From: a virus
Taxonomy: Duplodnaviria; Caudoviricetes
Strand: one strand, 5' to 3'
Virus record (IMG/VR): IMGVR_UViG_3300044675_005591
Location: 1 to 31,719 of that record
DNA: 31,719 nt
Within the stretch, counting starts at the first letter, position 1. Every line of letters begins with the position of its first letter. A program made the position numbers and the translations under genes. The notes beneath the pieces were generated by a model. It saw only the letters and a list, made by a program, of their open reading frames with translations. It ran no database searches and was not told the origin of the DNA. Of the stretch, positions 1,535-15,383 are shown one piece after another.

Positions 1535-1589
1535 TTTCTGGTTTTGCCGGTGCTATCCAGAAATGTGTTCTGGATAATCTTTGTTCGCC
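1535..1589 (+). other. attI-like site, locus 1 (crossover G/TT at 1583)
   Basis: 1535-1585 aligns without gaps to the reverse complement of 15333-15383 at 35/51 positions (manual count), ending at GTT. It heads an attC array. Confidence 0.65.
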
Positions 1590-1933
1590 TGATAGGGATT
1601 TCGTCCGAACAGGCAGTCAGCAGCGACAACGGAGTTGCCATTCATCGAGGTCCACATGCCTTCTTTGGCAAGTATCTCGATGATGGGCCTACCGATGCAG
1701 ATCGGGATTCTGGCGGCGTCTCGTTCGCGTTCCAGTTTTCTGGCATGGATACTCAGCGACAGATAATGTTCTGACCATTCGGTGGCATCCTTTGGCATGT
1801 GATCCACTAGAGCGGCATCAGTCTCAGGCGTCTCCGAAACAGAAGAACAAGCCTGCTGGAGACAACCCCCTTGGGCGTCTTGATCTTCGATAGCGTCTAG
1901 CTCCGGCGTGGGTGCATTGGTATTCGTTGTCAT
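1553..1933 (-). CDS. Cassette ORF, phage-type hypothetical protein (TPETDA...ARKLERERD), 126 aa
   Basis: Starts inside attC 1842-1975 and ends inside the attI-like site; ATGA overlap with the upstream ORF. Confidence 0.7.
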   Translation of the reverse strand: MTTNTNAPTPELDAIEDQDAQGGCLQQACSSVSETPETDAALVDHMPKDATEWSEHYLSLSIHARKLERERDAARIPICIGRPIIEILAKEGMWTSMNGNSVVAADCLFGRNPYQANKDYPEHISG

Positions 1934-1975
1934 TTTGTGGTTAGGTCAGGGGTTGTCTCATCAGGGTCGTTCTGC
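1842..1975 (+). other. attC-like site A
   Basis: GAAGAAC...GCTG[G]AGACAACCCC // GGGGTTGTCTCATC-AGGGTC-GTTCTGC: paired arms, one unpaired G in the left L box, AAC/GTT ends. Confidence 0.8.
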
Positions 1976-2208
1976 GGATACATGAAACTCGGGTAGGCCG
2001 TTCCTATCAAATCTTCCACCCGACAATGCCACTCATCGAGTTCGTGAGATTTTGCCCATGCCTCCATGATCGGCTCAACCAGCACGAGGATTTCCAGCAT
2101 AGCCTTTTCTCGGCACGCGCAGGCGTGGTGGTGAGTTGCGCCAACTGCCGAACAAGGCGAGGCAGCGCAACCCTCAGGAGCGGGCAAGTTTGTTTTTGGA
2201 TCAGGCAT
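1930..2208 (-). CDS. Cassette ORF, hypothetical protein with THHHACACRE motif, 92 aa
   Basis: ATG at 2208 lies in the loop of attC B and overlaps the upstream stop (ATGCCTGA); stop lies in the loop of attC A. Confidence 0.65.
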   Translation of the reverse strand: MPDPKTNLPAPEGCAASPCSAVGATHHHACACREKAMLEILVLVEPIMEAWAKSHELDEWHCRVEDLIGTAYPSFMYPQNDPDETTPDLTTK

Positions 2209-2249
2209 CTGGGGCGCTCCTTTCGGGTTGCTGCTCTTTTGCGTTGAGG
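2147..2249 (+). other. attC-like site B
   Basis: GCCGAAC-AAGGC-GAG[G]CAGC-GCAACCC // GGGTT-GCTGCTC-TTTTGC-GTTGAGG. Confidence 0.8.
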
Positions 2250-2497
2250 TCACAAAACATCTGGCATTGGCAGTCGGGGCATTGGCAAAGCGTCGAGTCA
2301 TATTCGCGATTGCATTGGAGGCAGCGGCGCCGGAGTCCATGCTGTGGGAGCAGTGGCATGCCAAACATGAGCCGGAACCGATTTCCTGCATGCAGCTTTG
2401 AGAGTGCGCGGTGATTGGCCGCGCGCTGTTTCGGCGTGGGAATTGGAACAAGATCGCCGCATGGGGGCTGATCGTTGGCGTGCATGGAATTAGGCAT
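2201..2497 (-). CDS. Cassette-associated ORF with Cys-rich (zinc-ribbon-like) C-terminus, 98 aa
   Basis: CLQC...CPDC motif; reads through attC C and stops inside attC B. Confidence 0.55.
   Translation of the reverse strand: MPNSMHANDQPPCGDLVPIPTPKQRAANHRALSKLHAGNRFRLMFGMPLLPQHGLRRRCLQCNREYDSTLCQCPDCQCQMFCDLNAKEQQPERSAPDA
2372..2480 (+). other. attC-like site C (degenerate)
   Basis: CCGGAAC-CGATT-TCCT[G]CAT-GCAGC // GCCGC-ATGGGGG-CTGATC-GTTGGCG; more mismatches than the other sites. Confidence 0.55.
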
Positions 2498-3044
2498 TTG
2501 ATGGGACGGTGGAGAGGATCTCGGCCTCGATGACCGTGCTGCTTTGCTGTTCGAGGGCGGCGGCTTTGGCGGCGGCGGCTTTGGCGCGGGCCTCTGCTAA
2601 GCGATCCTGGGCGCTGATCGTGACGACGGCTTTGATTTCGGTGGGCATGCCGTTGAGGGAGCGCTCGATGTCGTGGGCGAGTTTGCTGCTCATGGAGACG
2701 GCCATGAGGTCGGACTTTTTGGCGTCGGGGATGAGCTCGGCCATTTTGCTGGTGCCCTGAAGGCGGGCGATGGCGGCGTTTTTGGCGGCGAGGTCGGCAA
2801 GCTGCTCGATGCTGAACTCGCTGCGCATGAGGGCGGCAATGGTTTGGCGGGATTTGTCGATTTCGAGGGTTTTGAGTTCGCGCTGGAGATCGGAGATGGA
2901 GGTGATGCCGTGCTGGGTGATCATCTCAATGCAGACGGCGTAGGAGTCGGGGTCGCTGGACTTCCAGTTTTTGGCGGTGTGTTCGCGCCAGGCGTCGATG
3001 GGACGCGGGGGGAGATCGGCGAGGGGGAGAGCGGGGGTGTCCAT
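2490..3044 (-). CDS. Hypothetical helical protein, possibly terminase small subunit-like, 184 aa
   Basis: HTH-like N-terminal region, helical middle, VIEAE-type tail. The TerS call is inference only. Confidence 0.6.
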   Translation of the reverse strand: MDTPALPLADLPPRPIDAWREHTAKNWKSSDPDSYAVCIEMITQHGITSISDLQRELKTLEIDKSRQTIAALMRSEFSIEQLADLAAKNAAIARLQGTSKMAELIPDAKKSDLMAVSMSSKLAHDIERSLNGMPTEIKAVVTISAQDRLAEARAKAAAAKAAALEQQSSTVIEAEILSTVPSNA

Positions 3045-3045
3045 G

Positions 3046-3117
3046 GGGAGACTGGGAGACTGGGAGACTGGGAGACTGGGAGACTGGGAGACTGGGAGAC
3101 TGGGAGACTGGGAGACT
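3046..3117. repeat. Perfect tandem repeat (GGGAGACT) x9
   Basis: Read directly; it ends 1 nt from the ATG (3044) of the 184-aa gene. Confidence 0.97.
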
Positions 3118-3145
3118 AGGCGGCGCGATGCAGTGCGGCGAAGGG

Positions 3146-3180
3146 GATGACTTTGTTGACTGCATTGACGTTGTTGACGG
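3146..3180. repeat. 9-bp periodic (T)TGAC repeat after the intI stop
   Basis: TGAC at 3148, 3157, 3166, 3175; related arrays at 6363-6392 and 6767-6805. Confidence 0.8.
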
Positions 3181-3188
3181 GGTAAGAA

Positions 3189-4211
3189 TTAGGCGGCGCG
3201 TTGATGAGGGGTGAAGGGCACGACGTTGGAGGCTGGCTGTGGCAGAGAGTCGAGGGGACTGCGGATTTCGCTGGCGAATTGGCGGATGCAGTGGGTGTAG
3301 AGCTCGGTGGTTTCGAGATGAGCATGGCCTAGCAGTTCTTTGAGCTTGTGGATGCTGCCGCCGTTTTCGAGGTAGGCGGTGGCGAAGCTGTGGCGGAGGG
3401 TGTGGACGGTGATGCGTTTGCCGATGCGGGCGCGCTGGGCGGCTTTTTTGAGGGCTTTGGCGAGGGTGTCTTCGTGGAGGTGATGACGGCGAATGATGCC
3501 GGTTTCGGGGTCGCGTGAGGGCTGGCGGCCGGGGAAGAGGAATTGCCAGGGCCAGTCTTCGCCATAGCGGGGGTATTTGCGGGCGATGGAGTCTGGCAAC
3601 CAGACGCCGGGGAGGTTTTGGCGGCGATCGGCTTGCCAGAGGGCTTCAAGACGCTGGAAACGGGCTTGAAGGACGGGGATGAGGCTGGCGGGTAGGCAGG
3701 TGGTGCGGTCTTTGTCGCCTTTGCCGCCGCGGACGGTAATGAGGCGGGCGCTGAGGTCGATGTCGCGGATGCGGAGGCGGAGGCCTTCGTTGAGGCGGAG
3801 GCCGCTGCCGAACATGATCTGGGCGATGAGAAGGCAGGGACCTTCGAGATGATGGGCGAGGGCTTGGAATTCGCTGCTGGAGAGCCAGACGGGGAGGCGC
3901 TGTTTTTGGGGTGGTTTGACCCATTCGGGCATTTGACCCAAGGGGGTGCCGAGGCCGTGCTTGTAGGCGAAGACGAGGGCGTTGAGGGCCTGCTGCTGGG
4001 TTTTGGGTGAGCAGCCGCCGGGGCGTGTGGCGAGATGGGCGAGGTAGCGGCTGACTTTGGTTTCTGAGTCGGCTGCATGAAGGCCGGGCTGACTGAGGAG
4101 CCACAGGGCGTAACGTCGTGCCCAGCCTGCGTAGCATTGCCACGTTTTGCGGGCTTTGTGGTCGCGTTTGGCGGCACAGATGACTTGCTCGATGAATTCG
4201 GAGGTTGTCAT
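3189..4211 (-). CDS. intI: Integron integrase
   Basis: Tyrosine recombinase motifs GLRLNE, GKGDKDR, HTLRHSFAT, LLGH and TTELYTH, plus the IntI-specific insertion PGVWLPDSIARKYP...WPWQFLFP...RHHLHE. Confidence 0.93.
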   Translation of the reverse strand: MTTSEFIEQVICAAKRDHKARKTWQCYAGWARRYALWLLSQPGLHAADSETKVSRYLAHLATRPGGCSPKTQQQALNALVFAYKHGLGTPLGQMPEWVKPPQKQRLPVWLSSSEFQALAHHLEGPCLLIAQIMFGSGLRLNEGLRLRIRDIDLSARLITVRGGKGDKDRTTCLPASLIPVLQARFQRLEALWQADRRQNLPGVWLPDSIARKYPRYGEDWPWQFLFPGRQPSRDPETGIIRRHHLHEDTLAKALKKAAQRARIGKRITVHTLRHSFATAYLENGGSIHKLKELLGHAHLETTELYTHCIRQFASEIRSPLDSLPQPASNVVPFTPHQRAA

Positions 4212-4218
4212 GATAACT

Positions 4219-4252
4219 CAGAATGGAGGTGGGGTTAATTCAACTGTTAGGC
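4219..4252 (+). other. attI site, locus 2 (core GTTAGGC at 4246-4252)
   Basis: Canonical GTTRRRY about 35 bp upstream of the intI start. 4219-4240 matches the locus 3 site at 17/22 positions. The core is the exact complement of the next attC's GCCTAAC. Confidence 0.8.
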
Positions 4253-4585
4253 AGAAGGCACCGTATGCGGTCCATATTTACGAAGCCGGGTGAGCGTTCG
4301 CTCCATGTTCTCAACGTCGCGCTCCAGTTGCTCGGCCCACATCTTGTTTTTGCGGGTCGTTCGTCCGAGCGCAACGTCGTGGTCCCCGAGCAAAGAGCGT
4401 GTGTGCTCAAGGCCAGCGTCGAGCGCGTGAATCGCGGCGTATATGTCATCCTTCTGAACCGTCCAGAGTTCGGGTTGGTATTCGGTAATCATAAAATTAA
4501 AAACTGAGCCTAACAAGGCGATGGAGACAAGCCGAGTGCTTGCCACGTTTTCATTCGCGGGAGGTTTTTGGTTCGTGGGAATCAT
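4247..4585 (-). CDS. Cassette ORF, hypothetical coiled-coil protein (112 aa; start may be the internal MITEYQ)
   Basis: The TAA stop is part of the core site; the annotated start lies inside attC 4508-4615. Confidence 0.7.
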   Translation of the reverse strand: MIPTNQKPPANENVASTRLVSIALLGSVFNFMITEYQPELWTVQKDDIYAAIHALDAGLEHTRSLLGDHDVALGRTTRKNKMWAEQLERDVENMERTLTRLRKYGPHTVPSA

Positions 4586-4615
4586 TGGTTCGGCTGTCTC
4601 ACCTTGTCGTTCAGG
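4508..4615 (+). other. attC site 1
   Basis: GCCTAAC-AAGGC-GATG[G]AGA-CA[A]GCCGA // TCGGCTG-TCTCACC-TTGTC-GTTCAGG: R''/L''/L'/R' geometry with two extrahelical bases. Confidence 0.88.
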
Positions 4616-4651
4616 GCACTCACGTTAGTCTTTCGGACTTCGTGAGCGCCC
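4614..4651 (-). terminator. Stem-loop downstream of the 103-aa cassette gene
   Basis: GGGCACTCACG..AGTC-TTTCG-GACT..CGTGAGCGCCC; no clear U tract. Confidence 0.4.
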
Positions 4652-4664
4652 GTCACAGGTGGCG

Positions 4665-4976
4665 TTACATTTTCAGTCCGTCAGCCGTCGGCTCGATCAC
4701 GAGCGATGTCGGGTCTTTGCTGTGCGGGTATGGATTCGGCGTGTTCTGCGCCTTGAGGTCCATGCCGAGCCACATGATTGCTTCCTCGATCTTGGTCACG
4801 GCGAGGCTGCGTTCACGCGATGAGCGCACGGGATGGTCTGGCGCACGTTCTCCGGTGTAGCCTTTGTCACTGCCTTGTTTGAGGCGTTGGAGGCATTCAT
4901 CGAGGTCTTTGCGCCATTGCTTCGTCTGGAAGACAAAGGCTTCTTGCTGGTCTGGGTTTGGTGTCGTGGTTTCCAT
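4665..4976 (-). CDS. Cassette ORF, Acb2/Tad1-like helical-hairpin protein (candidate anti-defence nucleotide sponge), 103 aa
   Basis: SSRERSLAVTKIEEAIMWL resembles the Tad1 (SSRENACALTHVEEALMW) and Acb2-family helix, as recalled from memory. Confidence 0.6.
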   Translation of the reverse strand: METTTPNPDQQEAFVFQTKQWRKDLDECLQRLKQGSDKGYTGERAPDHPVRSSRERSLAVTKIEEAIMWLGMDLKAQNTPNPYPHSKDPTSLVIEPTADGLKM

Positions 4977-5024
4977 GTTATCGTTGTCGTTTGGTTTCTA
5001 CTTCGGCAGTCTGGGGTGCCGTGC

Positions 5025-5117
5025 CCTGAACCATGCGCTGGTGGCAACGGCTCGAAATTTATCTGTCACGGTTGCGGGGCCTCAGTGCTCGCCGTCGCCA
5101 CAGCTTCGGCGTTCTGC
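5025..5117 (+). other. attC site 2
   Basis: CCTGAAC-CATGC-GCTG[G]TGG-CAACGGC // GCCGTCG-CCACAGC-TTCGGC-GTTCTGC. GTGCCCTGAAC (5021-5031) is the exact complement of the cassette start GTTCAGGGCAC (4609-4619). Confidence 0.88.
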
Positions 5118-5431
5118 TCACCGACTAGCGCGACGCACTTCGAGTGCAGCAAGGTGCCTCCAAAGCCCGCTGCCATGATTGGCACGTTTTTCACCACTGA
5201 GCGCAAGACAGATTCGCATTCGTGCAAGCGGCGAGTCATTGCGTCCGGTGGCACATAAAAGTTGTGGCTGCATCCGCCGCAGCACACATCAGCAGCGTGA
5301 CCGTCGTAAAGCCAGAGTTTGCCGCAGTTTGGACATTCAACGAACTGCTTGACCACGAAAGCGGAACCAGCGGATGCAGGCAACCCAGTGGGTCGGTTTG
5401 TCGGAGTTTGAGAGTCGGTTTCTTCGGTCAT
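5066..5431 (-). CDS. Cassette ORF, zinc-finger-like protein (CPNC...CGGC), 121 aa
   Basis: Starts in the loop of attC 3 and stops in the loop of attC 2. Confidence 0.7.
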   Translation of the reverse strand: MTEETDSQTPTNRPTGLPASAGSAFVVKQFVECPNCGKLWLYDGHAADVCCGGCSHNFYVPPDAMTRRLHECESVLRSVVKNVPIMAAGFGGTLLHSKCVALVGEQNAEAVATASTEAPQP

Positions 5432-5497
5432 GTATTTGAGGCTGGTGAGTGTCTTTCGTGGTTATGCCCCAGGGTTGCCTGATCCTGGTCGTTCACT
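5361..5497 (+). other. attC site 3
   Basis: GCGGAAC-CAGCG-GAT[G]CAGG-CAACCC // GGGTTG-CCTGATC-CTGGTC-GTTCACT. Confidence 0.87.
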
Positions 5498-5951
5498 TTT
5501 CGCCGAGGATGAGGTTGACGGTCTTGATGAACCATTTGGCGAGGGAGTTGTCGGCCTGGATGGCGGATTGGAGGCGGTGCCAGGCTTCTAAAACTGCGGC
5601 GGGGCTGGTGTCGATGTGGCCGGTGGTGTGGGCGGTGACGGCTTCGCGGAGGGTGCCGGGATCGGACTCGGCGATGGCGGCGATGGTGATCTCGAGGCGC
5701 GGGAGGTAGTCGGGCGGGCAGTCGTCGCGCAAATAGGCGATGAGCCAGCGGCGGGCGGTTTCGTCATCGACGGCGCGGAGGAGCTGGCCAAAGCGCTCGG
5801 GGCGCGGATGCTGGTCGCGGCGGATGCTGTCGATGGTGCCGCGTTTGAGGCCGGCGGTGTTTTCGAGGCTGAGGATGGTGCGCGTGGGGTTGCGCTGAAG
5901 GTAGTCTTCGAGTTGGACGGATAGATGGCTCATGCGTCCAGCTTGGTGCAT
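5493..5951 (-). CDS. XRE-type HTH protein, repressor-like
   Basis: N-terminal HTH-like segment TILSLENTAGLKRGTIDSIRRDQHPRPERFGQLLRAV. Its stop codon overlaps the last GTT core of the array. Confidence 0.65.
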   Translation of the reverse strand: MHQAGRMSHLSVQLEDYLQRNPTRTILSLENTAGLKRGTIDSIRRDQHPRPERFGQLLRAVDDETARRWLIAYLRDDCPPDYLPRLEITIAAIAESDPGTLREAVTAHTTGHIDTSPAAVLEAWHRLQSAIQADNSLAKWFIKTVNLILGEK

Positions 5952-5964
5952 TAAATCGTTGTTT

Positions 5965-6288
5965 TCAACAATTTTTTGATGCGGGAGGGTGTGCGGGCTT
6001 TTGAGTTTGGGCGCGGGGCTTTTTAGCTCCGGTGTGTGTGTGTGGAGGGGTTTGAGGCCGTGGATCCTCGGTGCTTTGGCTGGGGGCTGCGGCGGGGCTG
6101 GGAACGGCTAAAATGGCGGCCTGGAGGGCGTCGGCGAGGCTGAGGCGGTGGGCCTGGGCGTAGGCGAGGAGGTGGGCGTGGGCGGTGGCGCTGACGCGCG
6201 GGAGCGTGGTGCGGCGGGGCTGCTGGAGGGCGGGACGGCCGCGGCTGCGCTTGCGGGCGGTGGTTTTGGTGTTAGGCTGGGGGATCAT
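5965..6288 (-). CDS. Small DNA-binding protein (RGRP motif plus ribbon-helix-helix-like segment)
   Basis: From ATG 6288: RSRGRP...TTLPRVSATAHAHLLAYAQAHRLSLADALQAAI. Confidence 0.5.
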   Translation of the reverse strand: MIPQPNTKTTARKRSRGRPALQQPRRTTLPRVSATAHAHLLAYAQAHRLSLADALQAAILAVPSPAAAPSQSTEDPRPQTPPHTHTGAKKPRAQTQKPAHPPASKNC

Positions 6289-6320
6289 GGCGTTGGTGAA
6301 TGCTGGCGCTGTTTGTGATG

Positions 6321-6354
6321 AGCCCCCGGCGATTTGCGGTCGCCGGGGGCTTTG
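6321..6354. terminator. GC-rich hairpin, terminator-like
   Basis: AGCCCCCGGCGA-TTTGCGG-TCGCCGGGGGCT, a 12-bp perfect stem in an intergenic gap. Confidence 0.6.
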
Positions 6355-6362
6355 TGCGTTTG

Positions 6363-6392
6363 GGTGACGTTGTTGACCTGGTTGACGGGTTA
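6363..6392. repeat. 9-bp periodic GTTGAC repeat
   Basis: 25 bp (GGTGACGTTGTTGACCTGGTTGACG) identical to 6767-6791. Confidence 0.85.
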
Positions 6393-6644
6393 GGCGGCTT
6401 CGGTTTCGGTTTCGGTGGCCAACAGGCTGATGGTGTCGCCTTCGTGGAGCTGGCACTCGCCTTCCAAGATGACCCAGCCGCCGCGCAGGTTGCCGCCTGT
6501 TGAGCGGCCGATGCCTGTGCAGCGTTGGCCGAGTTGGCCGAGGTCGAAATCTTCGACAGTGTGGTCGTCTGGGCCGGACCATTCCAGGTGGGCGGTTTTG
6601 ATGCCGTGGTTGTCTTCAATGCGGGTGATGGTGGCGGTGGTCAT
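6390..6644 (-). CDS. Hypothetical protein, 84 aa
   Basis: Compact ORF between a promoter-like repeat and a 3' repeat/hairpin. Confidence 0.6.
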   Translation of the reverse strand: MTTATITRIEDNHGIKTAHLEWSGPDDHTVEDFDLGQLGQRCTGIGRSTGGNLRGGWVILEGECQLHEGDTISLLATETETEAA

Positions 6645-6650
6645 GGCGGT

Positions 6651-6742
6651 GTTTGTGAGGTGGTGGTTGCGTTTGCGGTGCAGTGCTCGGGATGAGCATG
6701 TGGGAGCTTAATGCGTGATTTGTTGCGTGCAATAATTATTTG
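6651..6742 (-). promoter_or_regulatory. Duplicated leftward promoter/leader, copy 1
   Basis: Minus strand TTGCAC-N16-TAAGCT followed by a TGCTC..GAGCA hairpin; closely similar to 8163-8261. Confidence 0.6.
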
Positions 6743-6766
6743 TTGAAATGTTTAACGGTGACGGAC

Positions 6767-6805
6767 GGTGACGTTGTTGACCTGGTTGACGTTGTTGACG
6801 GGTTA
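6767..6805. repeat. 9-bp periodic GTTGAC repeat
   Basis: TGAC at 6769, 6778, 6787, 6796, directly after the TAA of 6803-7210. Confidence 0.85.
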
Positions 6806-7210
6806 AAGATCCCAATGAATGCCGCGCGTGCCGTAGTAGGAGGTCGCAGCGGCTTCGCCTTCTTTGTGGGCTGTGGCGTTTCCGCACGGGGTGCAGACGC
6901 CATAACCGGTGTCTCTGTTCCACCATTGGCGGCCTTTGGTGCGCTGACCGCAGCAACAACAACTGAGGTTGCGCGCTGGGCGAACGGGGGCCGCGCTTTG
7001 ACGGCGGAAGATGGTCGCGAGATCGGGCAGGAGGTAATCGCCGCTAGGCTGTAAGCGCGGGCGGTGGGCAAGGCCGCGACTGCGGGCGGCGCGCAGAAGA
7101 TAAGCAACGCGGGCACGCGGCACATCGTGTGCGCGCTGCTCGCTGTAATAAACGAGGCTGAATGCGGCTTTGATGCGGACGGGCTGGGCAGGTGTTTGGG
7201 GAATGGACAT
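6803..7210 (-). CDS. Hypothetical protein with Cys motif (CCCCG...GRQWWNRDTGYGVCTPC), 135 aa
   Basis: ORF track; likely metal-binding C-terminal domain. Confidence 0.65.
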   Translation of the reverse strand: MSIPQTPAQPVRIKAAFSLVYYSEQRAHDVPRARVAYLLRAARSRGLAHRPRLQPSGDYLLPDLATIFRRQSAAPVRPARNLSCCCCGQRTKGRQWWNRDTGYGVCTPCGNATAHKEGEAAATSYYGTRGIHWDL

Positions 7211-7268
7211 GGGATGATGAGCGGTAAAAGTTTGCCCGCGTGTGGGATGCGCGGCCCCCGTGTGGGGT

Positions 7269-8153
7269 TTAGGCTTTGAGTTTCTTCATCTCTTCGGCCA
7301 AGGCCCAGAGGGCGCGGTTGACGGTGGTGTTTTGGTCGATGCCGCCGATCTCGCGTGTCTGGCGGCGTGCCACACGGCGGCCTTTGTCGTCGCGCTGGAC
7401 GTAGCGGAGGCCGCCGCGAATGAGGCTTTCTTGCACGGTGTTCAGCGTGTTCCAAATGGTCGGCGCGGCGTCTTCATGGCGGCGAAGGGTAAGCACCTGG
7501 TCTGGAGTGACAGGAGCGGCTTTGTCTTCGTAGCGTGCGACGAGTGCGGCGGTGGCAAAGGCGCGTTGCTCGCCTGCGGTGAGCTGCATGCTGGCCATGC
7601 TGCGGACGCTTTCATTGACTTCGGGGAGCTTTTCCATGAGGGACACGCATCCGTCGATCACCTGGCCGGTGACATCGCCCTTGTGAGGGACGCGGATGTC
7701 TTCGATCATGTTTTGTGCGACGACGAGGCCGTTGCCGCAGACGAGGCGGAAGATGCCTGCCATGAGGCGATAAGAGCTGGTGCCGTCGTGCGAATTGAGC
7801 AGGACGATCTCGTTGTGATTGCCGCCGACTTCGAGTTTTTGGCTGTCGTGGCGGAGGCGAATCAGATGCTTGGTGAAGCCGCGCTTTTCTTCGTCGCGAG
7901 AGCCGCCTTGCATGACGGCGTAAGGGCGGAAGCCTTCGCGCATGAGGCTGGTGAGGACTTCGCTGGTGGGGATGTAGCTATAAACGGCGGAGCGGCTGCT
8001 GTGGGCCTGCTCGGCGAAGATGCTGGGGGCGATGCTGCGGAGCTGGTCGAGATCCAAAGGCTGGCGGGAGGTGTAATTGACCGCGCCGTTGCTGCGGGTG
8101 TGGGTGCGAGCGAAACGGGAGATGTGGGAGGAGTAGGAGCCGAGGATGTTCAT
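7269..8153 (-). CDS. DUF932 (DUF945) family protein
   Basis: Motifs APSIFA..AHSSRS..YSYIPT, FTKHLIRLRH, LLNSHDGTSSYRLMAGIFRLVCGNG; start at ATG 8153. Confidence 0.85.
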   Translation of the reverse strand: MNILGSYSSHISRFARTHTRSNGAVNYTSRQPLDLDQLRSIAPSIFAEQAHSSRSAVYSYIPTSEVLTSLMREGFRPYAVMQGGSRDEEKRGFTKHLIRLRHDSQKLEVGGNHNEIVLLNSHDGTSSYRLMAGIFRLVCGNGLVVAQNMIEDIRVPHKGDVTGQVIDGCVSLMEKLPEVNESVRSMASMQLTAGEQRAFATAALVARYEDKAAPVTPDQVLTLRRHEDAAPTIWNTLNTVQESLIRGGLRYVQRDDKGRRVARRQTREIGGIDQNTTVNRALWALAEEMKKLKA

Positions 8154-8162
8154 GATGATGCT

Positions 8163-8261
8163 GTTTGTGATGTGGTTTGAAGTTCGCGTTTGCGGCGCGG
8201 TGCTCGGTGATGAGCACGTGGGGAGATTAATGCGGGAATTGTTGCGTGCAAGTATTAATTG
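8163..8261 (-). promoter_or_regulatory. Duplicated leftward promoter/leader, copy 2 (divergent control region)
   Basis: Minus strand TTGCAC-N16-TAATCT, then hairpin GTGCTC-ATCACC-GAGCAC; AT-rich. Confidence 0.6.
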
Positions 8262-8342
8262 CAGGAAAATGTTGTTTGCGTCTTTTTGGTTGACTATGGG
8301 GTAACCTGTGTAATTCTTCGGCGTATCCGTTTTCTCAACGCT

Positions 8343-8546
8343 ATGCCGAACGACGACACTCCGCCCCCGACGCCGCCCGATTTGATCGTGCTGGAAGCCC
8401 TCAAGGAGACCTGCGAGCAGGTGCGCCGCCACAATAGCAATCCGGAGGTGGCGAAGGCTGCGCTCCAATGGGAGACGCGCTTTGCCGCGAGCATGAAGAA
8501 GCACGAAACGGGAGGCGCTGGCCGCGAGGTGGCGACGACGGCGTGA
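8343..8546 (+). CDS. Hypothetical protein, first gene of the rightward operon
   Basis: ATG 8343; stop overlaps the next GTG. Confidence 0.55.
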   Translation: MPNDDTPPPTPPDLIVLEALKETCEQVRRHNSNPEVAKAALQWETRFAASMKKHETGGAGREVATTA

Positions 8547-8740
8547 TTTCGGATCTGCAACAACGCATTTCCGCCGCTCTGCGCAAGGGCAAGCGGCAGG
8601 TCGAGGCCACGGGCGCGGGAGCGCTGGGGAGTGCTTCCCGCGCCCCGGTGGCCCGGGCTTACGAGGTCCGGGAGTCGTGCGGTAATGTGCGGCGCTCTTT
8701 TTTGCTGTGGCATCCCCTTAAACAAGGAGGTCGGCCATGA
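8543..8740 (+). CDS. Hypothetical protein
   Basis: GTGA and ATGA couplings at both ends. Confidence 0.5.
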   Translation: MISDLQQRISAALRKGKRQVEATGAGALGSASRAPVARAYEVRESCGNVRRSFLLWHPLKQGGRP

Positions 8741-10906: not shown

Positions 10907-11886
10907 TGCACAAGTATTGGAGACACATCGGCGATTACGCCAAGGACACTCGGCACCTCTCCATCCTGGAGCACGGCGCTTTCACCCTCATGCTCGACTG
11001 GTGCTATGCCTCCGAAAAGCCGCTGCCCGAGGATGAAAAGGTGCTTTTCCGGCTTTGTGGAGCCTTCGACAAGGCCGAACAGAAGGCCGTGTTGGCTGTT
11101 CGCGATGAATTTTTCACCCGCGAGCAGTCCGGCTGGACACAGAAACGCGTGCTGGAAGAGATCGCTGATTTCCGCGACAAGCAGGCCAAAGCCAAGAAGG
11201 CAGCAGACGAAAGTTGGAAGAGCAGGCGCAATGCGGACGCAATGCAGACGCATAGCGAACGCATCCAAAATGCAGAGTCGAATGCAATGCCTCGCGCGCA
11301 CGTTCCAACAACCAACAACCAACAACCAGCAACCAATCTACTCTTGCTCGCACCTCACGGTGCTGAGCCGACGGCCGATGATCCCGAAGGCTCCGCCGCA
11401 GCCACCCCAGAAGGTTCTGGCGAAAAAAAGAAAAGGGGGGCGGCGGTGGAAGACTTGGCCTGGGCACCGGACACGGGTTGGACGGGCTTCACGGACACGC
11501 TCATGGACGAGCTGGCTGGCGCTTACCCGGCCTGCGACATCCGGCGGCAGATGCTTGCCATGGAGCAGTGGTTGAAGGCGAACAAGGCCAAGGCTCGCAA
11601 GAGCAACTGGCGCAAGTTCGTCACCAACTGGCTCGCCAAGGAGCAGGATCGCGGTGGTGATCTGCGCGGCAAGACACCCTTCCAAGCCTTCTCGGATAGC
11701 TTTGGCGCGAAAAAAGAAGCGCCGCCGCTCACGGTGGAGCTTCCGCCGGACGGCTACGAGCAGGCCATGACCGCTCTTTGGGGCGATGGCTGGGAGGGCA
11801 CCGTGCCCGGCTGGCCGCAAATGGTCGCCAGTGACAAAGCACAGGTCCGCCGCTGGCTCGCTCAGCATGGGAAGGAGGCGGCGTGA
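10906..11886 (+). CDS. YdaU/DUF1376 family phage replication protein
   Basis: N-terminus MHKYWRHIGDYAKDTRHLSILEHGAFTLMLDWCYASEKPLP; upstream of a DnaB gene. Confidence 0.8.
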   Translation: MHKYWRHIGDYAKDTRHLSILEHGAFTLMLDWCYASEKPLPEDEKVLFRLCGAFDKAEQKAVLAVRDEFFTREQSGWTQKRVLEEIADFRDKQAKAKKAADESWKSRRNADAMQTHSERIQNAESNAMPRAHVPTTNNQQPATNLLLLAPHGAEPTADDPEGSAAATPEGSGEKKKRGAAVEDLAWAPDTGWTGFTDTLMDELAGAYPACDIRRQMLAMEQWLKANKAKARKSNWRKFVTNWLAKEQDRGGDLRGKTPFQAFSDSFGAKKEAPPLTVELPPDGYEQAMTALWGDGWEGTVPGWPQMVASDKAQVRRWLAQHGKEAA

Positions 11887-12890
11887 ATGAGCTGGCTCTT
11901 TTCGCGGGCGCTGGTGGTGGCATTCTCGGAGGGAAGCTCCTGGGATGGCGCTGCGTGTGCGCTGTGGAGTGGGATGCCTATGCCGCAAGCGTGCTTGTGG
12001 CACGGCAAAACGATGGATGCCTGGAGCCGTTTCCCATCTGGGATGACGTGCGCACCTTTGACGGAGGTGCATGGCGAGGCCGTGTTGACGTGGTTTCTGG
12101 CGGGTTTCCCTGCCAGGACATTTCCTGCGCTGGCAAAGGAGCGGGCATCGATGGGGAGCGAAGTGGGATGTGGGTGGAGATGGCCCGGATCATCGGTGAG
12201 GTGGGACCGCGATACGTGCTCGTGGAGAACTCGCCAATGCTCACTGTTCGGGGGCTTGGAACAGTTCTCGGGAACTTGGCCTCGCTGGGGTATGATGCGA
12301 TCTGGGGAGTGCTGGGAGCTGATGATGCCGGAGCTCCACACCGACGGAAACGAATCTGGATCATGGGATGGCGAAGAGACGTGGCAGACGCCGACGGCGC
12401 AGGATGCGAATGGTCGCACGCACCACAATCAACGCGATGGCTCCAAGCGTGCGAGCCTGCTGGGGCAGGTGGCGATGTGGCCAACGGTGCGCAGCAGCGA
12501 CGGAGAGAGAGGTGGACGCGGCGATTTGATCCAAGCGGTGCGGGGCAATCCAAACAGGCATTACAAACTCTGGCAGACGCCAGTGGCGGACGATGCGGTG
12601 GACCGCAAAACAGGGAAGTGGAACTCGCGAGGCGAGGCCAAGTTGTCTGCTCAAGTCAAGATGCTACCAACGCCAACGGTGCAGGATGCGAGCAACAACG
12701 GCGGTCCTGCTCAGATGGAGCGGAATGCACTGCCGCTAAATGCGGTGGCTGGTGGTGCGCTGAACCCGACGTGGGTCGAGTGGCTGATGGGGTGGCCGCT
12801 CGGGTGGACCGATTGCGGTGCCTCGGCAACGGACAAGTTCCGGCAGTGGTGCGGCTCGCATGGCAAACCTTTAACCAAATCAACGCATGA
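11883..12890 (+). CDS. DNA (cytosine-5) methyltransferase, catalytic polypeptide
   Basis: Motif I FAGAGG, IV GGFPCQD, VI ENSP, VIII HRRKRIW, X LRCLGNGQVP. Confidence 0.9.
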   Translation: MNELALFAGAGGGILGGKLLGWRCVCAVEWDAYAASVLVARQNDGCLEPFPIWDDVRTFDGGAWRGRVDVVSGGFPCQDISCAGKGAGIDGERSGMWVEMARIIGEVGPRYVLVENSPMLTVRGLGTVLGNLASLGYDAIWGVLGADDAGAPHRRKRIWIMGWRRDVADADGAGCEWSHAPQSTRWLQACEPAGAGGDVANGAQQRRRERWTRRFDPSGAGQSKQALQTLADASGGRCGGPQNREVELARRGQVVCSSQDATNANGAGCEQQRRSCSDGAECTAAKCGGWWCAEPDVGRVADGVAARVDRLRCLGNGQVPAVVRLAWQTFNQINA

Positions 12891-12894
12891 GTGA
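11887..12894 (+). CDS. Overlapping alternate-frame polypeptide with motif IX-like segment (putative methyltransferase beta subunit)
   Basis: 335 open codons, four W/L-P/Q-T-P/V repeats and LNPTWVEWLMGWPLGWTD; ATG 8 nt after AAGGAGG. Confidence 0.6.
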   Translation: MSWLFSRALVVAFSEGSSWDGAACALWSGMPMPQACLWHGKTMDAWSRFPSGMTCAPLTEVHGEAVLTWFLAGFPARTFPALAKERASMGSEVGCGWRWPGSSVRWDRDTCSWRTRQCSLFGGLEQFSGTWPRWGMMRSGECWELMMPELHTDGNESGSWDGEETWQTPTAQDANGRTHHNQRDGSKRASLLGQVAMWPTVRSSDGERGGRGDLIQAVRGNPNRHYKLWQTPVADDAVDRKTGKWNSRGEAKLSAQVKMLPTPTVQDASNNGGPAQMERNALPLNAVAGGALNPTWVEWLMGWPLGWTDCGASATDKFRQWCGSHGKPLTKSTHE

Positions 12895-15135: not shown

Positions 15136-15333
15136 ATGACCCCCGAAAACTTTTGTTATTGGCTGCAAGGCTTGTTTGAGGTGCAAAACCCCCGAGCACT
15201 GACCGAAGCACAAACCGCCGTGGTGAAGGAACACCTTCAAACGGTATTCAATAAACGCACAAAGAAGACCGTCGAGCGCACTGAATCGCTCCCGGCTCAG
15301 TCGCCTCCAACGCGGGGTGGCCGCATATGCTGA
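15136..15333 (+). CDS. Cassette ORF, phage-type hypothetical protein (MTPENFCYWLQG...), 65 aa
   Basis: Flanked by GTTCAGCAT (15098-15106) and ATGCTGAAC (15327-15335); its stop is part of the core site. Confidence 0.75.
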   Translation: MTPENFCYWLQGLFEVQNPRALTEAQTAVVKEHLQTVFNKRTKKTVERTESLPAQSPPTRGGRIC

Positions 15334-15383
15334 ACGGTAATTATTCCAACCACCATTCCGCATAATACCCGCAAAACCGGAAA
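15329..15383 (-). other. attI-like site, locus 3
   Basis: Minus strand TTTCCGGTTTTGCGGGTATTATGCGGAATGGTGGTTGGAATAATTACC-GTTCAGC; similar to both other attI-like sites. Confidence 0.7.

Follow-up and report, generated by a model that had tools for sequence, protein, structure and literature searches.

Cassette genes inverted relative to normal integron polarity in a phage integron and its viral relatives

In typical integrons the cassette genes point away from the attI site and are driven by the promoter Pc near attI. The viral record IMGVR_UViG_3300044675_005591, which we analysed in its entirety (31,719 bases, hereafter called the window) and which encodes a terminase, a major capsid protein, a helicase and an endolysin, raises the question of how an integron works when its cassette genes run the other way. 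A sequence-only reading of the window had claimed that all cassette open reading frames (ORFs) at three loci are inverted relative to normal integron polarity. Our analysis upholds this claim and demonstrates that the observation is real and general in phage integrons. The element of the window is an integron by its enzyme, its sites and the behaviour of its cassettes, but it departs from the canonical gene orientation, as the attC top strand carries none of the six cassette genes and none of them points away from attI.

The argument depends on the polarity of the attC sites, which were located with a scanner for the pattern AAC, spacer, L box with one extra base, stem, spacer and GTT; the model was widened to cover 6-base left spacers, since a stricter scan missed such sites. 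The six attC sites of the window scored between 12.4 and 18.1, whereas in the opposite polarity four of them gave no fit and the other two reached only 8.6 and 9.4. In 300 shuffled versions of the window, sites scoring at least 12 averaged 0.68 (maximum 4), and six were never reached. An Rfam scan of the window matched no attC family. In all six sites the L'' box, which lies on the AAC arm, contains an additional G (position 4). Because the recombining bottom strand has its extrahelical bases on the arm opposite its AAC, according to the passages on strand choice in Nivina (2016; PMC5027507), the top strand is + at loci 1 and 2 and − at locus 3, in agreement with the sequence-only reading. The same polarity is obtained from a cassette found at two loci (see below) and from the relative L004, which shares 93-97% backbone identity with the window and carries other cassettes at loci 1 and 2. 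Its identity to the window breaks exactly at G|TT 1583 and 4246 and returns at GTT 2243 and 5491, so that each attC moves together with the cassette body that lies between it and attI, as in any integron. No hairpin separates the body of the first cassette from attI, and the last attC of each array belongs to the variable segment. Moreover, the core site and R'' at the cassette ends are complementary at 7/7 positions in three cassettes, 6/7 in two and 5/7 in one.

The attI sites were sought with a matrix built from 20 intI-adjacent attI sites of other phages, by which the 713 GTT positions of the window were ranked. Position 1583 (+, score 20.7) came first and 15335 (−, 14.1) second, with the next at 5.0, and loci 1 and 3 therefore possess solo attI sites of their own. 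Homology to L004 and to contigs of the lake sequencing runs X16 and X21 ends at the locus 1 attI, whose − strand also encodes, in frame, the last codons and the stop of the first cassette gene; the core of the locus 2 attI is complementary at 7/7 positions to R'' of the first attC. The solo attI of locus 1 also contains a 9-bp inverted repeat (1554-1576), which may represent extra IntI boxes or a terminator of the convergent integrase gene at 185-1468. In runs X16 and X21 a different cassette follows this attI at 1583, and its first letters are without the usual GTT core. The region 8180-8560 was considered as a further cassette locus and rejected, as it holds no attC.

The direction of the cassette genes was judged by a codon model, which prefers the strand opposite the attC top in all six cassettes (10.6 vs 5.6, 7.7 vs -5.9, 10.0 vs 4.5, 19.6 vs -0.1, 7.3 vs -1.1 and 4.7 vs -1.4). 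Family matches place two of the six genes on the bottom strand, namely 4665-4976 (−) and 15136-15333 (+), the latter matching phrog_28500 (E 2.7e-11), and none of five competing + frames tested at loci 1 and 2 matched PHROGs. Since + frames are open as well in cassettes 1584-1969 (76 amino acids, aa) and 4247-4609 (94 aa), the direction of these two genes was assigned from codon score and the geometry of the junctions rather than by homology. The earlier count of seven out of seven ORFs pointing toward attI holds for the six cassettes and fails for the seventh ORF, 2201-2497, a backbone gene that L004 keeps up to the crossover G|TT 2243 with another tail of 22 residues.

Table 1. Integron-related features of the window (positions counted from its first base; for attC sites and cassettes the strand is that of the attC top)
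Feature	Position	Strand	Remarks
attI, locus 1 (solo)	1551-1589	+	crossover G1583|T1584
Cassette L1-1	1584-1969	+	absent from L004
attC of L1-1	1842-1975	+	
L1-1 gene	1553-1933	-	126 aa; 4-nt overlap with upstream stop
Cassette L1-2	1970-2243	+	
attC of L1-2	2147-2249	+	
L1-2 gene	1930-2208	-	92 aa; 8-nt overlap with upstream gene
Backbone Cys-rich gene	2201-2497	-	last 13 codons from L1-2 attC; not a cassette
intI	3189-4211	-	340 aa, integron integrase
attI, locus 2	4214-4252	+	crossover G4246|T4247; 35 bp from intI start; L004 homology ends at crossover
Cassette L2-1	4247-4609	+	
attC of L2-1	4508-4615	+	
L2-1 gene	4247-4585	-	alternative start 4490
Cassette L2-2	4610-5111	+	related cassette (about 71-76%) in L089
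attC of L2-2	5025-5117	+	
L2-2 gene	4665-4976	-	Acb2/Tad1 family; PF24729
Cassette L2-3	5112-5491	+	
attC of L2-3	5361-5497	+	
L2-3 gene	5066-5431	-	end in next attC
Backbone gene upstream of array	5493-5951	-	stop overlaps R' box of last attC; conserved in L004
Repeated intergenic element	6702-6742; copy 8221-8261	-	family D16; both copies kept in L004
attC of L3	15011-15104	-	
Cassette L3	15334 down to 15017	-	
L3 gene	15136-15333	+	65 aa; in rightward operon, just before terminase
attI, locus 3 (solo)	15329-15367	-	crossover at 15335

A survey of ORF orientation in homologous arrays, which had been proposed as a check, gave the same picture. It comprised 316 loci fetched via IntI or its alignments (156 viral according to the IMG/VR label, 80 metagenome and 80 genome) and is a sample, the scans having covered 32, 6 and 1 of 64 parts with the best 80 kept. 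Cassettes were deduplicated and counted in one pipeline at a score of at least 13.5, the viral set including the window's twin L001. Among 185 viral cassettes 138 were reversed, 12 normal and 35 unclear, compared with 3, 49 and 24 of 76 genome cassettes and 3, 22 and 9 of 34 metagenome cassettes. Likewise, when IntI clusters at 95% identity were counted (reversed/normal/unclear), the viral ones were distributed 54/4/42 (n=100) and those from genomes 3/18/40 (n=61; Fisher p 3e-11, viral vs genome), with 2/16/48 for metagenome and 0/1/1 for mixed clusters. Pfam served as an independent test of the coding strand, with matches in 27 of 192 bottom-strand vs 3 of 102 top-strand ORFs. The former consisted of 25 among 144 reversed ORFs (L001 and L126 excluded) and 2 among 48 ORFs of other viral cassettes, and the top-strand set combined every ORF of the non-reversed cassettes (51) with the 51 longest among the 140 of reversed cassettes; of its three matches, one was aadA of a class 1 integron and the other two belonged to a host-type integron. 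Normal genes were found in hosts of the Verrucomicrobiaceae and Planctomycetota that share the attC type of the window, in the host integrons L239 and L288, which share it too and to which the same polarity rule was applied, and in the array of Shewanella phage M16-3 (6 normal, 0 reversed, 2 unclear). Seven GenBank phage records had IntI matches. Phage Rctr41k (KX853513, region 4680-8541) carries an IntI-like gene in a + operon and one strong attC on the − strand between + genes, away from the IntI-like gene, and a Burkholderiales genome (L238, 1483-1822) has a reversed first cassette beside an attI that resembles the class 1 type; this may be a phage-type cassette residing in a host integron. 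Within the open-licence literature of PubMed Central and bioRxiv, subscription papers and the supplements of Qi 2023 lying outside this scope, we came across no account of phage integrons whose cassette genes are systematically inverted.

The integrase itself matches TIGR02249 with 325.9 bits (cut-off 265), its IntI-specific insertion aligns with that of IntI1, and the catalytic residues R139, K164, H270, R273, H296 and Y305 are invariant in 28 relatives. By analogy with known systems, it would be expected to recombine attC bottom strands with attI. In a phylogeny of 59 rows with two or more concordant orientation calls plus an outgroup (quick trees, no approximately unbiased test), the window IntI falls in a clade of 16 rows that are all reversed (Shimodaira-Hasegawa-like approximate likelihood ratio test, SH-aLRT, 99); a further clade, likewise of 16 rows (15 of them reversed, SH-aLRT 99), lies within the IntIs of proteobacterial hosts. 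At least three orientation changes are required by the well-supported branches, similarly in a second tree, and this result together with the reversed clade among host IntIs leaves a single origin of the reversed integrons unsupported; several origins or back-transfers are likely from these trees. A search with two LexA motifs, which may not be those of the host, gave no match near intI. The intI region varies among relatives: in L004 (6001-6480; window 3255-3830) the gene is without its central part, lost between short similar repeats, run X22 shows another skip inside intI (3777-4199), and downstream of the intI stop, before the following gene, a tandem repeat of 8 bp (3046-3120) is variable.

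A further regularity concerns the reading frame at the crossover. Among 215 unique viral attC sites, 111 have a bottom-strand coding frame that reaches the crossover, of which 29 stop in the core and 82 read on. The AAC is in frame in 75 of these 82 read-through ORFs (binomial p 4e-28 if they were independent, which they are not fully), and in 66 of the 75 the stop codon lies within the next attC. A frame-0 stop within the attC is present in 179 of the 215 viral sites (frames 1 and 2: 120 and 106) vs 46 of 87 host sites (54 and 37), and a count based on cassettes found the AAC in frame in 59/59, from about 28 IntI clusters. Gene starts lie inside the gene's own attC in 57 of 148 cases and within 60 nt after it in 64. 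In the window, the genes 1553-1933, 1930-2208 and 5066-5431 start inside their own attC loop, and 4247-4585 may be a fourth; four genes, the L1-1 gene included, run through a crossover, each of them with the AAC in frame; stops fall within the core site for 4247-4585, 15136-15333 and the backbone gene 5493-5951, and before it for 4665-4976. Genes would thus often begin in their own attC loop, leave through the crossover in one fixed frame and receive their stop from the next attC or attI, so that any cassette order would keep the genes open and closely spaced, and shuffling would probably alter only short C-terminal tails. This rule, like the attI sites at loci 1 and 3, the starts and stops within attC and the anti-defence cargo described below, had been missed by the sequence-only reading.

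Comparative evidence indicates that the cassettes move as exact units. In genome G001 (L318) the 383-bp L2-3 cassette (99.5% identity) is found at locus 3, on the opposite strand beside L3 and joined at the crossover base; there its gene is read on +, in the sense of the rightward operon, and the L3 attC supplies it with a tail of 11 residues, compared with 14 in the window. Phage L085, whose IntI shares only 46% identity with that of the window, has L1-2 (277 bp, 98.2%) as its first cassette next to intI, with the 8-nt start/stop overlap retained in the attC. The arrays also vary widely within one lake population, as judged from contigs of seven runs, some at low depth, with loose ends among those listed. 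The right arm of the L3 attC is joined before 5111 in contigs of runs X12 and X16, the locus 3 backbone follows 5493 in those of X16, L1-1 has another context from position 1583 on in X17 and X21, and in five of the seven runs a short deletion has fused L1-1 with L2-3 (joint 1922-5139, 4-nt microhomology) and removed an attC arm.

The layout of the arrays suggests how their genes may be expressed. In 40 of 42 reversed viral arrays the distal flanking genes point into the array, which, together with the occurrence of L2-3 at two loci on opposite strands, shows that the cassette genes follow the local phage operon; in the window the left arm is read on − and the right arm on +. The median distance between attI and intI is 80 bp in reversed integrons (n=55) vs 254.5 bp in normal ones (n=30), and distances of at most 60 bp occur in 24/55 vs 1/30, although some of the long distances probably reflect missed attC sites. 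Such short distances agree with the idea that the Pc/Pint region has been lost and that transcription continues into intI. In the window the stop of the first cassette gene (4247) lies 35 bp from the intI ATG (4211), as the sequence-only reading had noted, and from this gap and the arrangement of the distal genes it seems probable that the cassettes are read through from phage promoters and that intI is co-transcribed. Scans of the window for sigma-70 promoters and terminators gave results at chance level (for promoters 3 matches vs 1.6 +/- 0.9 in shuffles), and no + strand match to Pc was found near 4246 in a scan limited to the sigma-70 consensus. The repeated intergenic element (Table 1) is probably the best candidate for a leftward promoter, and it had no match in the sigma-70 scan. 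The intergenic stretches 6650-6752 and 8162-8273, which are 80% identical, precede leftward genes and are kept in L004, are candidate early promoters.

Taken together, the integron of the window consists of IntI, three attI sites and six attC cassettes, with the genes always along the surrounding phage operon. If established integron chemistry applies, IntI would join the folded bottom strand of an attC to attI and place each new cassette next to attI, at the promoter-distal end; phage promoters on the far side of each array would drive transcription, with intI as the next gene of the same transcript. The newest cassette would then come last in the transcript, provided that integration occurs at attI. 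We regard it as probable that the window contains such an operon-embedded phage integron, in which sites of normal polarity are combined with opposite-strand genes running along the surrounding operon, the cassettes preserve the reading frame, expression is likely by read-through and intI is likely next in the transcript.

Several observations weigh against this reading. Twelve viral cassettes were normal, the strand calls on short ORFs depend on a codon model that we built ourselves, a nearby ATG was found for only 27 of the 75 read-through ORFs (mode -4, 11 cases), starts and stops overlap directly at locus 1 (-8, -8, -4) but not at locus 2 (gaps of 61, 89 and 79 nt), and the attI at 4246 is outside the top 10 of the matrix, which we ascribe to another attI type. 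Moreover, in five of the six window attC sites the fold of the top strand is more stable than that of the bottom strand, contrary to the usual bias; over viral attC sites the bias has the usual direction but is weaker (-0.80 vs -2.29 kcal/mol), and folding energy was discarded as a test of polarity, being uninformative or contrary in the window. This folding, together with the low strand selectivity noted for some attC sites in parts of PMC5027507, could mean that polarity was misassigned, i.e. that this IntI clade recombines the other strand, the genes are normal and the true attI lies at the far end. The variable last attC and the first cassette without an attC toward attI, the attI-like sites on the predicted side, the usual divergent relation of attC and intI at 258 of 261 viral sites (not deduplicated) and the normal genes which the same rule yields in L239, L288 and phage M16-3 make such an error extremely improbable. 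The deletion of intI in L004, by which IntI is evidently not always kept, and the frequent microhomology joint among the lake contigs would suit a view of the arrays as relics of host integrons varied by homologous recombination with an inactive IntI. Host cassettes are not reversed, however, exchanges are exact to the crossover base across strands and phage lineages, and the window IntI is intact within its all-reversed clade, so that we consider this origin very unlikely.

Other explanations accept the inversion and differ on its expression or its cause. In bacterial integrons, toxin-antitoxin cassettes and ORF-less promoter cassettes carry promoters of their own. The reversed cassettes might likewise each have a promoter in or near the attC, with intI served by a promoter of the first cassette; promoter-like matches on − at 4516-4488 and 4238-4210 and the room left by the gaps at locus 2 are in line with this, as is the description in sections of PMC8876359 of Treponema antisense promoter cassettes that could drive intI. 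However, the number of promoter matches is near that in shuffled sequence, both − matches overlap a start codon, and self-promoted cassettes need neither follow the operon, through the strand switch and in 40 of 42 arrays, nor keep a fixed junction frame, which renders this explanation rather doubtful. It is also conceivable, if unlikely, that inversion was selected mainly for its effect on the recombination rate, because the coding strand, being the attC bottom strand, becomes the lagging-strand template when genes are co-directional with replication, a position that would promote attC folding and the shuffling of cassettes. Excision is raised with the bottom strand on the lagging template according to the relevant part of PMC13108822, and the wide differences between arrays of one population agree with frequent recombination; GC skew, however, tracks the coding strand and does not settle the direction of the fork. 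Such selection is compatible with an operon-embedded, read-through integron and does not exclude it.

The cargo of the reversed cassettes is consistent with a role in the conflict between phage and host. Their 25 Pfam matches comprise 10 DNA methyltransferases, 3 Acb2/Tad1 proteins (2 above the cut-off), 1 Tad2-like protein, 1 Mom, 1 PF13876 (which we take to be a family linked to Acb4), 1 RNA ligase, 2 phosphoadenosine phosphosulfate (PAPS)-reductase-like proteins and 6 others. With 119 of 144 reversed genes free of any Pfam match, most cargo is of unknown function, which tempers this interpretation. In the window the protein of 4665-4976 (−) matches the Acb2/Tad1 hairpin domain PF24729 with 28.7 bits (cut-off 27), and its best PDB match is Tad1, a weak one (E 0.1). 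Since Acb2, Tad1 and Tad2 are described as signal sponges in parts of 10.1101/2024.12.30.630793, it is predicted to be a nucleotide-signal sponge. The reversed cassettes seem to hold a pool of small early genes that is specific to phages and in which counter-defence functions figure strongly. In L037 (6898-7905) adjacent Tad2-like and Acb2/Tad1-like genes are found at the attI end of an eight-cassette reversed array.

Compared with bacterial integrons, both class 1 and sedentary chromosomal, the window shares the IntI family with its insertion, the attC anatomy, the G|TT crossover, an intI divergent from the attC top and variable arrays. In contrast, its genes lie on the bottom strand with starts and stops inside attC in a fixed frame, only 35 bp separate attI from intI, no Pc was found, two further attI sites occur without intI, and the element is carried and exchanged by phages. 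Phage integrons and clusters of attC sites lacking integrases (CALINs) treated in sections of Qi et al. 2023 (PMC9892861) likewise have attC and IntI in phage genomes and methyltransferase cargo, and phage attC bottom strands recombined with attI1 there. The complete integrons that these sections cover are captured host or class 1 ones, with M16-3 normal in our hands, and the passages on orientation make no mention of inverted genes. The window is not a CALIN, as its genome has intI and loci 1 and 3 consist of an attI with cassettes away from intI. In the Treponema-type integrons with inverted integrase (10.1101/2022.02.06.479319; PMC13323075), as far as the parts consulted describe them, intI and cassette genes are co-directional as in the window; there, however, it is intI that is turned, onto the attC strand, whereas in the window the genes are turned and the relation of intI (−) to the attC top (+) is regular. 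The synthetic attC sites in sections of Nivina 2020 (PMC7439510) are also protein-coding and exchanged in frame, but were engineered; those of the window are natural, read on the bottom strand and contribute short termini and stop/start coupling. Finally, a cassette library in phage-host conflict is common to the window and to the integrons described, in parts of 10.1101/2024.07.02.601686, as anti-phage defence banks, of which the phage-side cargo of Acb2/Tad1, Tad2, Mom and methyltransferases forms the mirror case.

As to the phage itself, a tRNA scan found a partial tRNA gene at positions 1-63, and in the sister record G002 (L001; 100% complete, 99.9% identical to the window over 10.2 kb) phage-like genes continue past this piece, which is why the window probably represents a free, temperate phage with its attP in a tRNA gene. 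The phage occurs in lake metagenomes, and this habitat together with the resemblance of its attC sites to the Planctomycetes-Verrucomicrobia-Chlamydiae (PVC) type may suggest a host among the Verrucomicrobia. The backbone gene 5493-5951 matched no family in searches of PHROGs, Pfam and TIGRFAM-type profiles. At 11883-12894 two 335-aa ORFs overlap almost completely in different + frames and both match DNA methyltransferase PHROGs, and the block 11880-12885 is cleanly missing in lake runs X17, X19 and X22.

These results may point beyond a single phage. It is quite possible, though we put it forward tentatively, that phages run a mirror-image integron system of their own, with a cassette pool not expressible from a bacterial Pc, attC sites that serve as coding sequence and stop/start coupler, phage IntI lineages, several attI sites in different operons and a shuffled counter-defence library. 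Because the backbone genes 2201-2497 and 5493-5951 already end in an attC, the locus may also show the birth of cassettes from resident phage genes and lends itself to tests of how cassettes arise. A barrier between the phage and host cassette pools is predicted, and cassettes beside known sponges or methyltransferases provide a sequence-level mining route to new anti-defence functions. In-frame attC junctions, previously engineered only, occur here in nature, and the textbook logic of integrons, in which promoterless genes point away from attI and the newest comes first, is met by the opposite design with the same chemistry in at least 54 viral IntI clusters.

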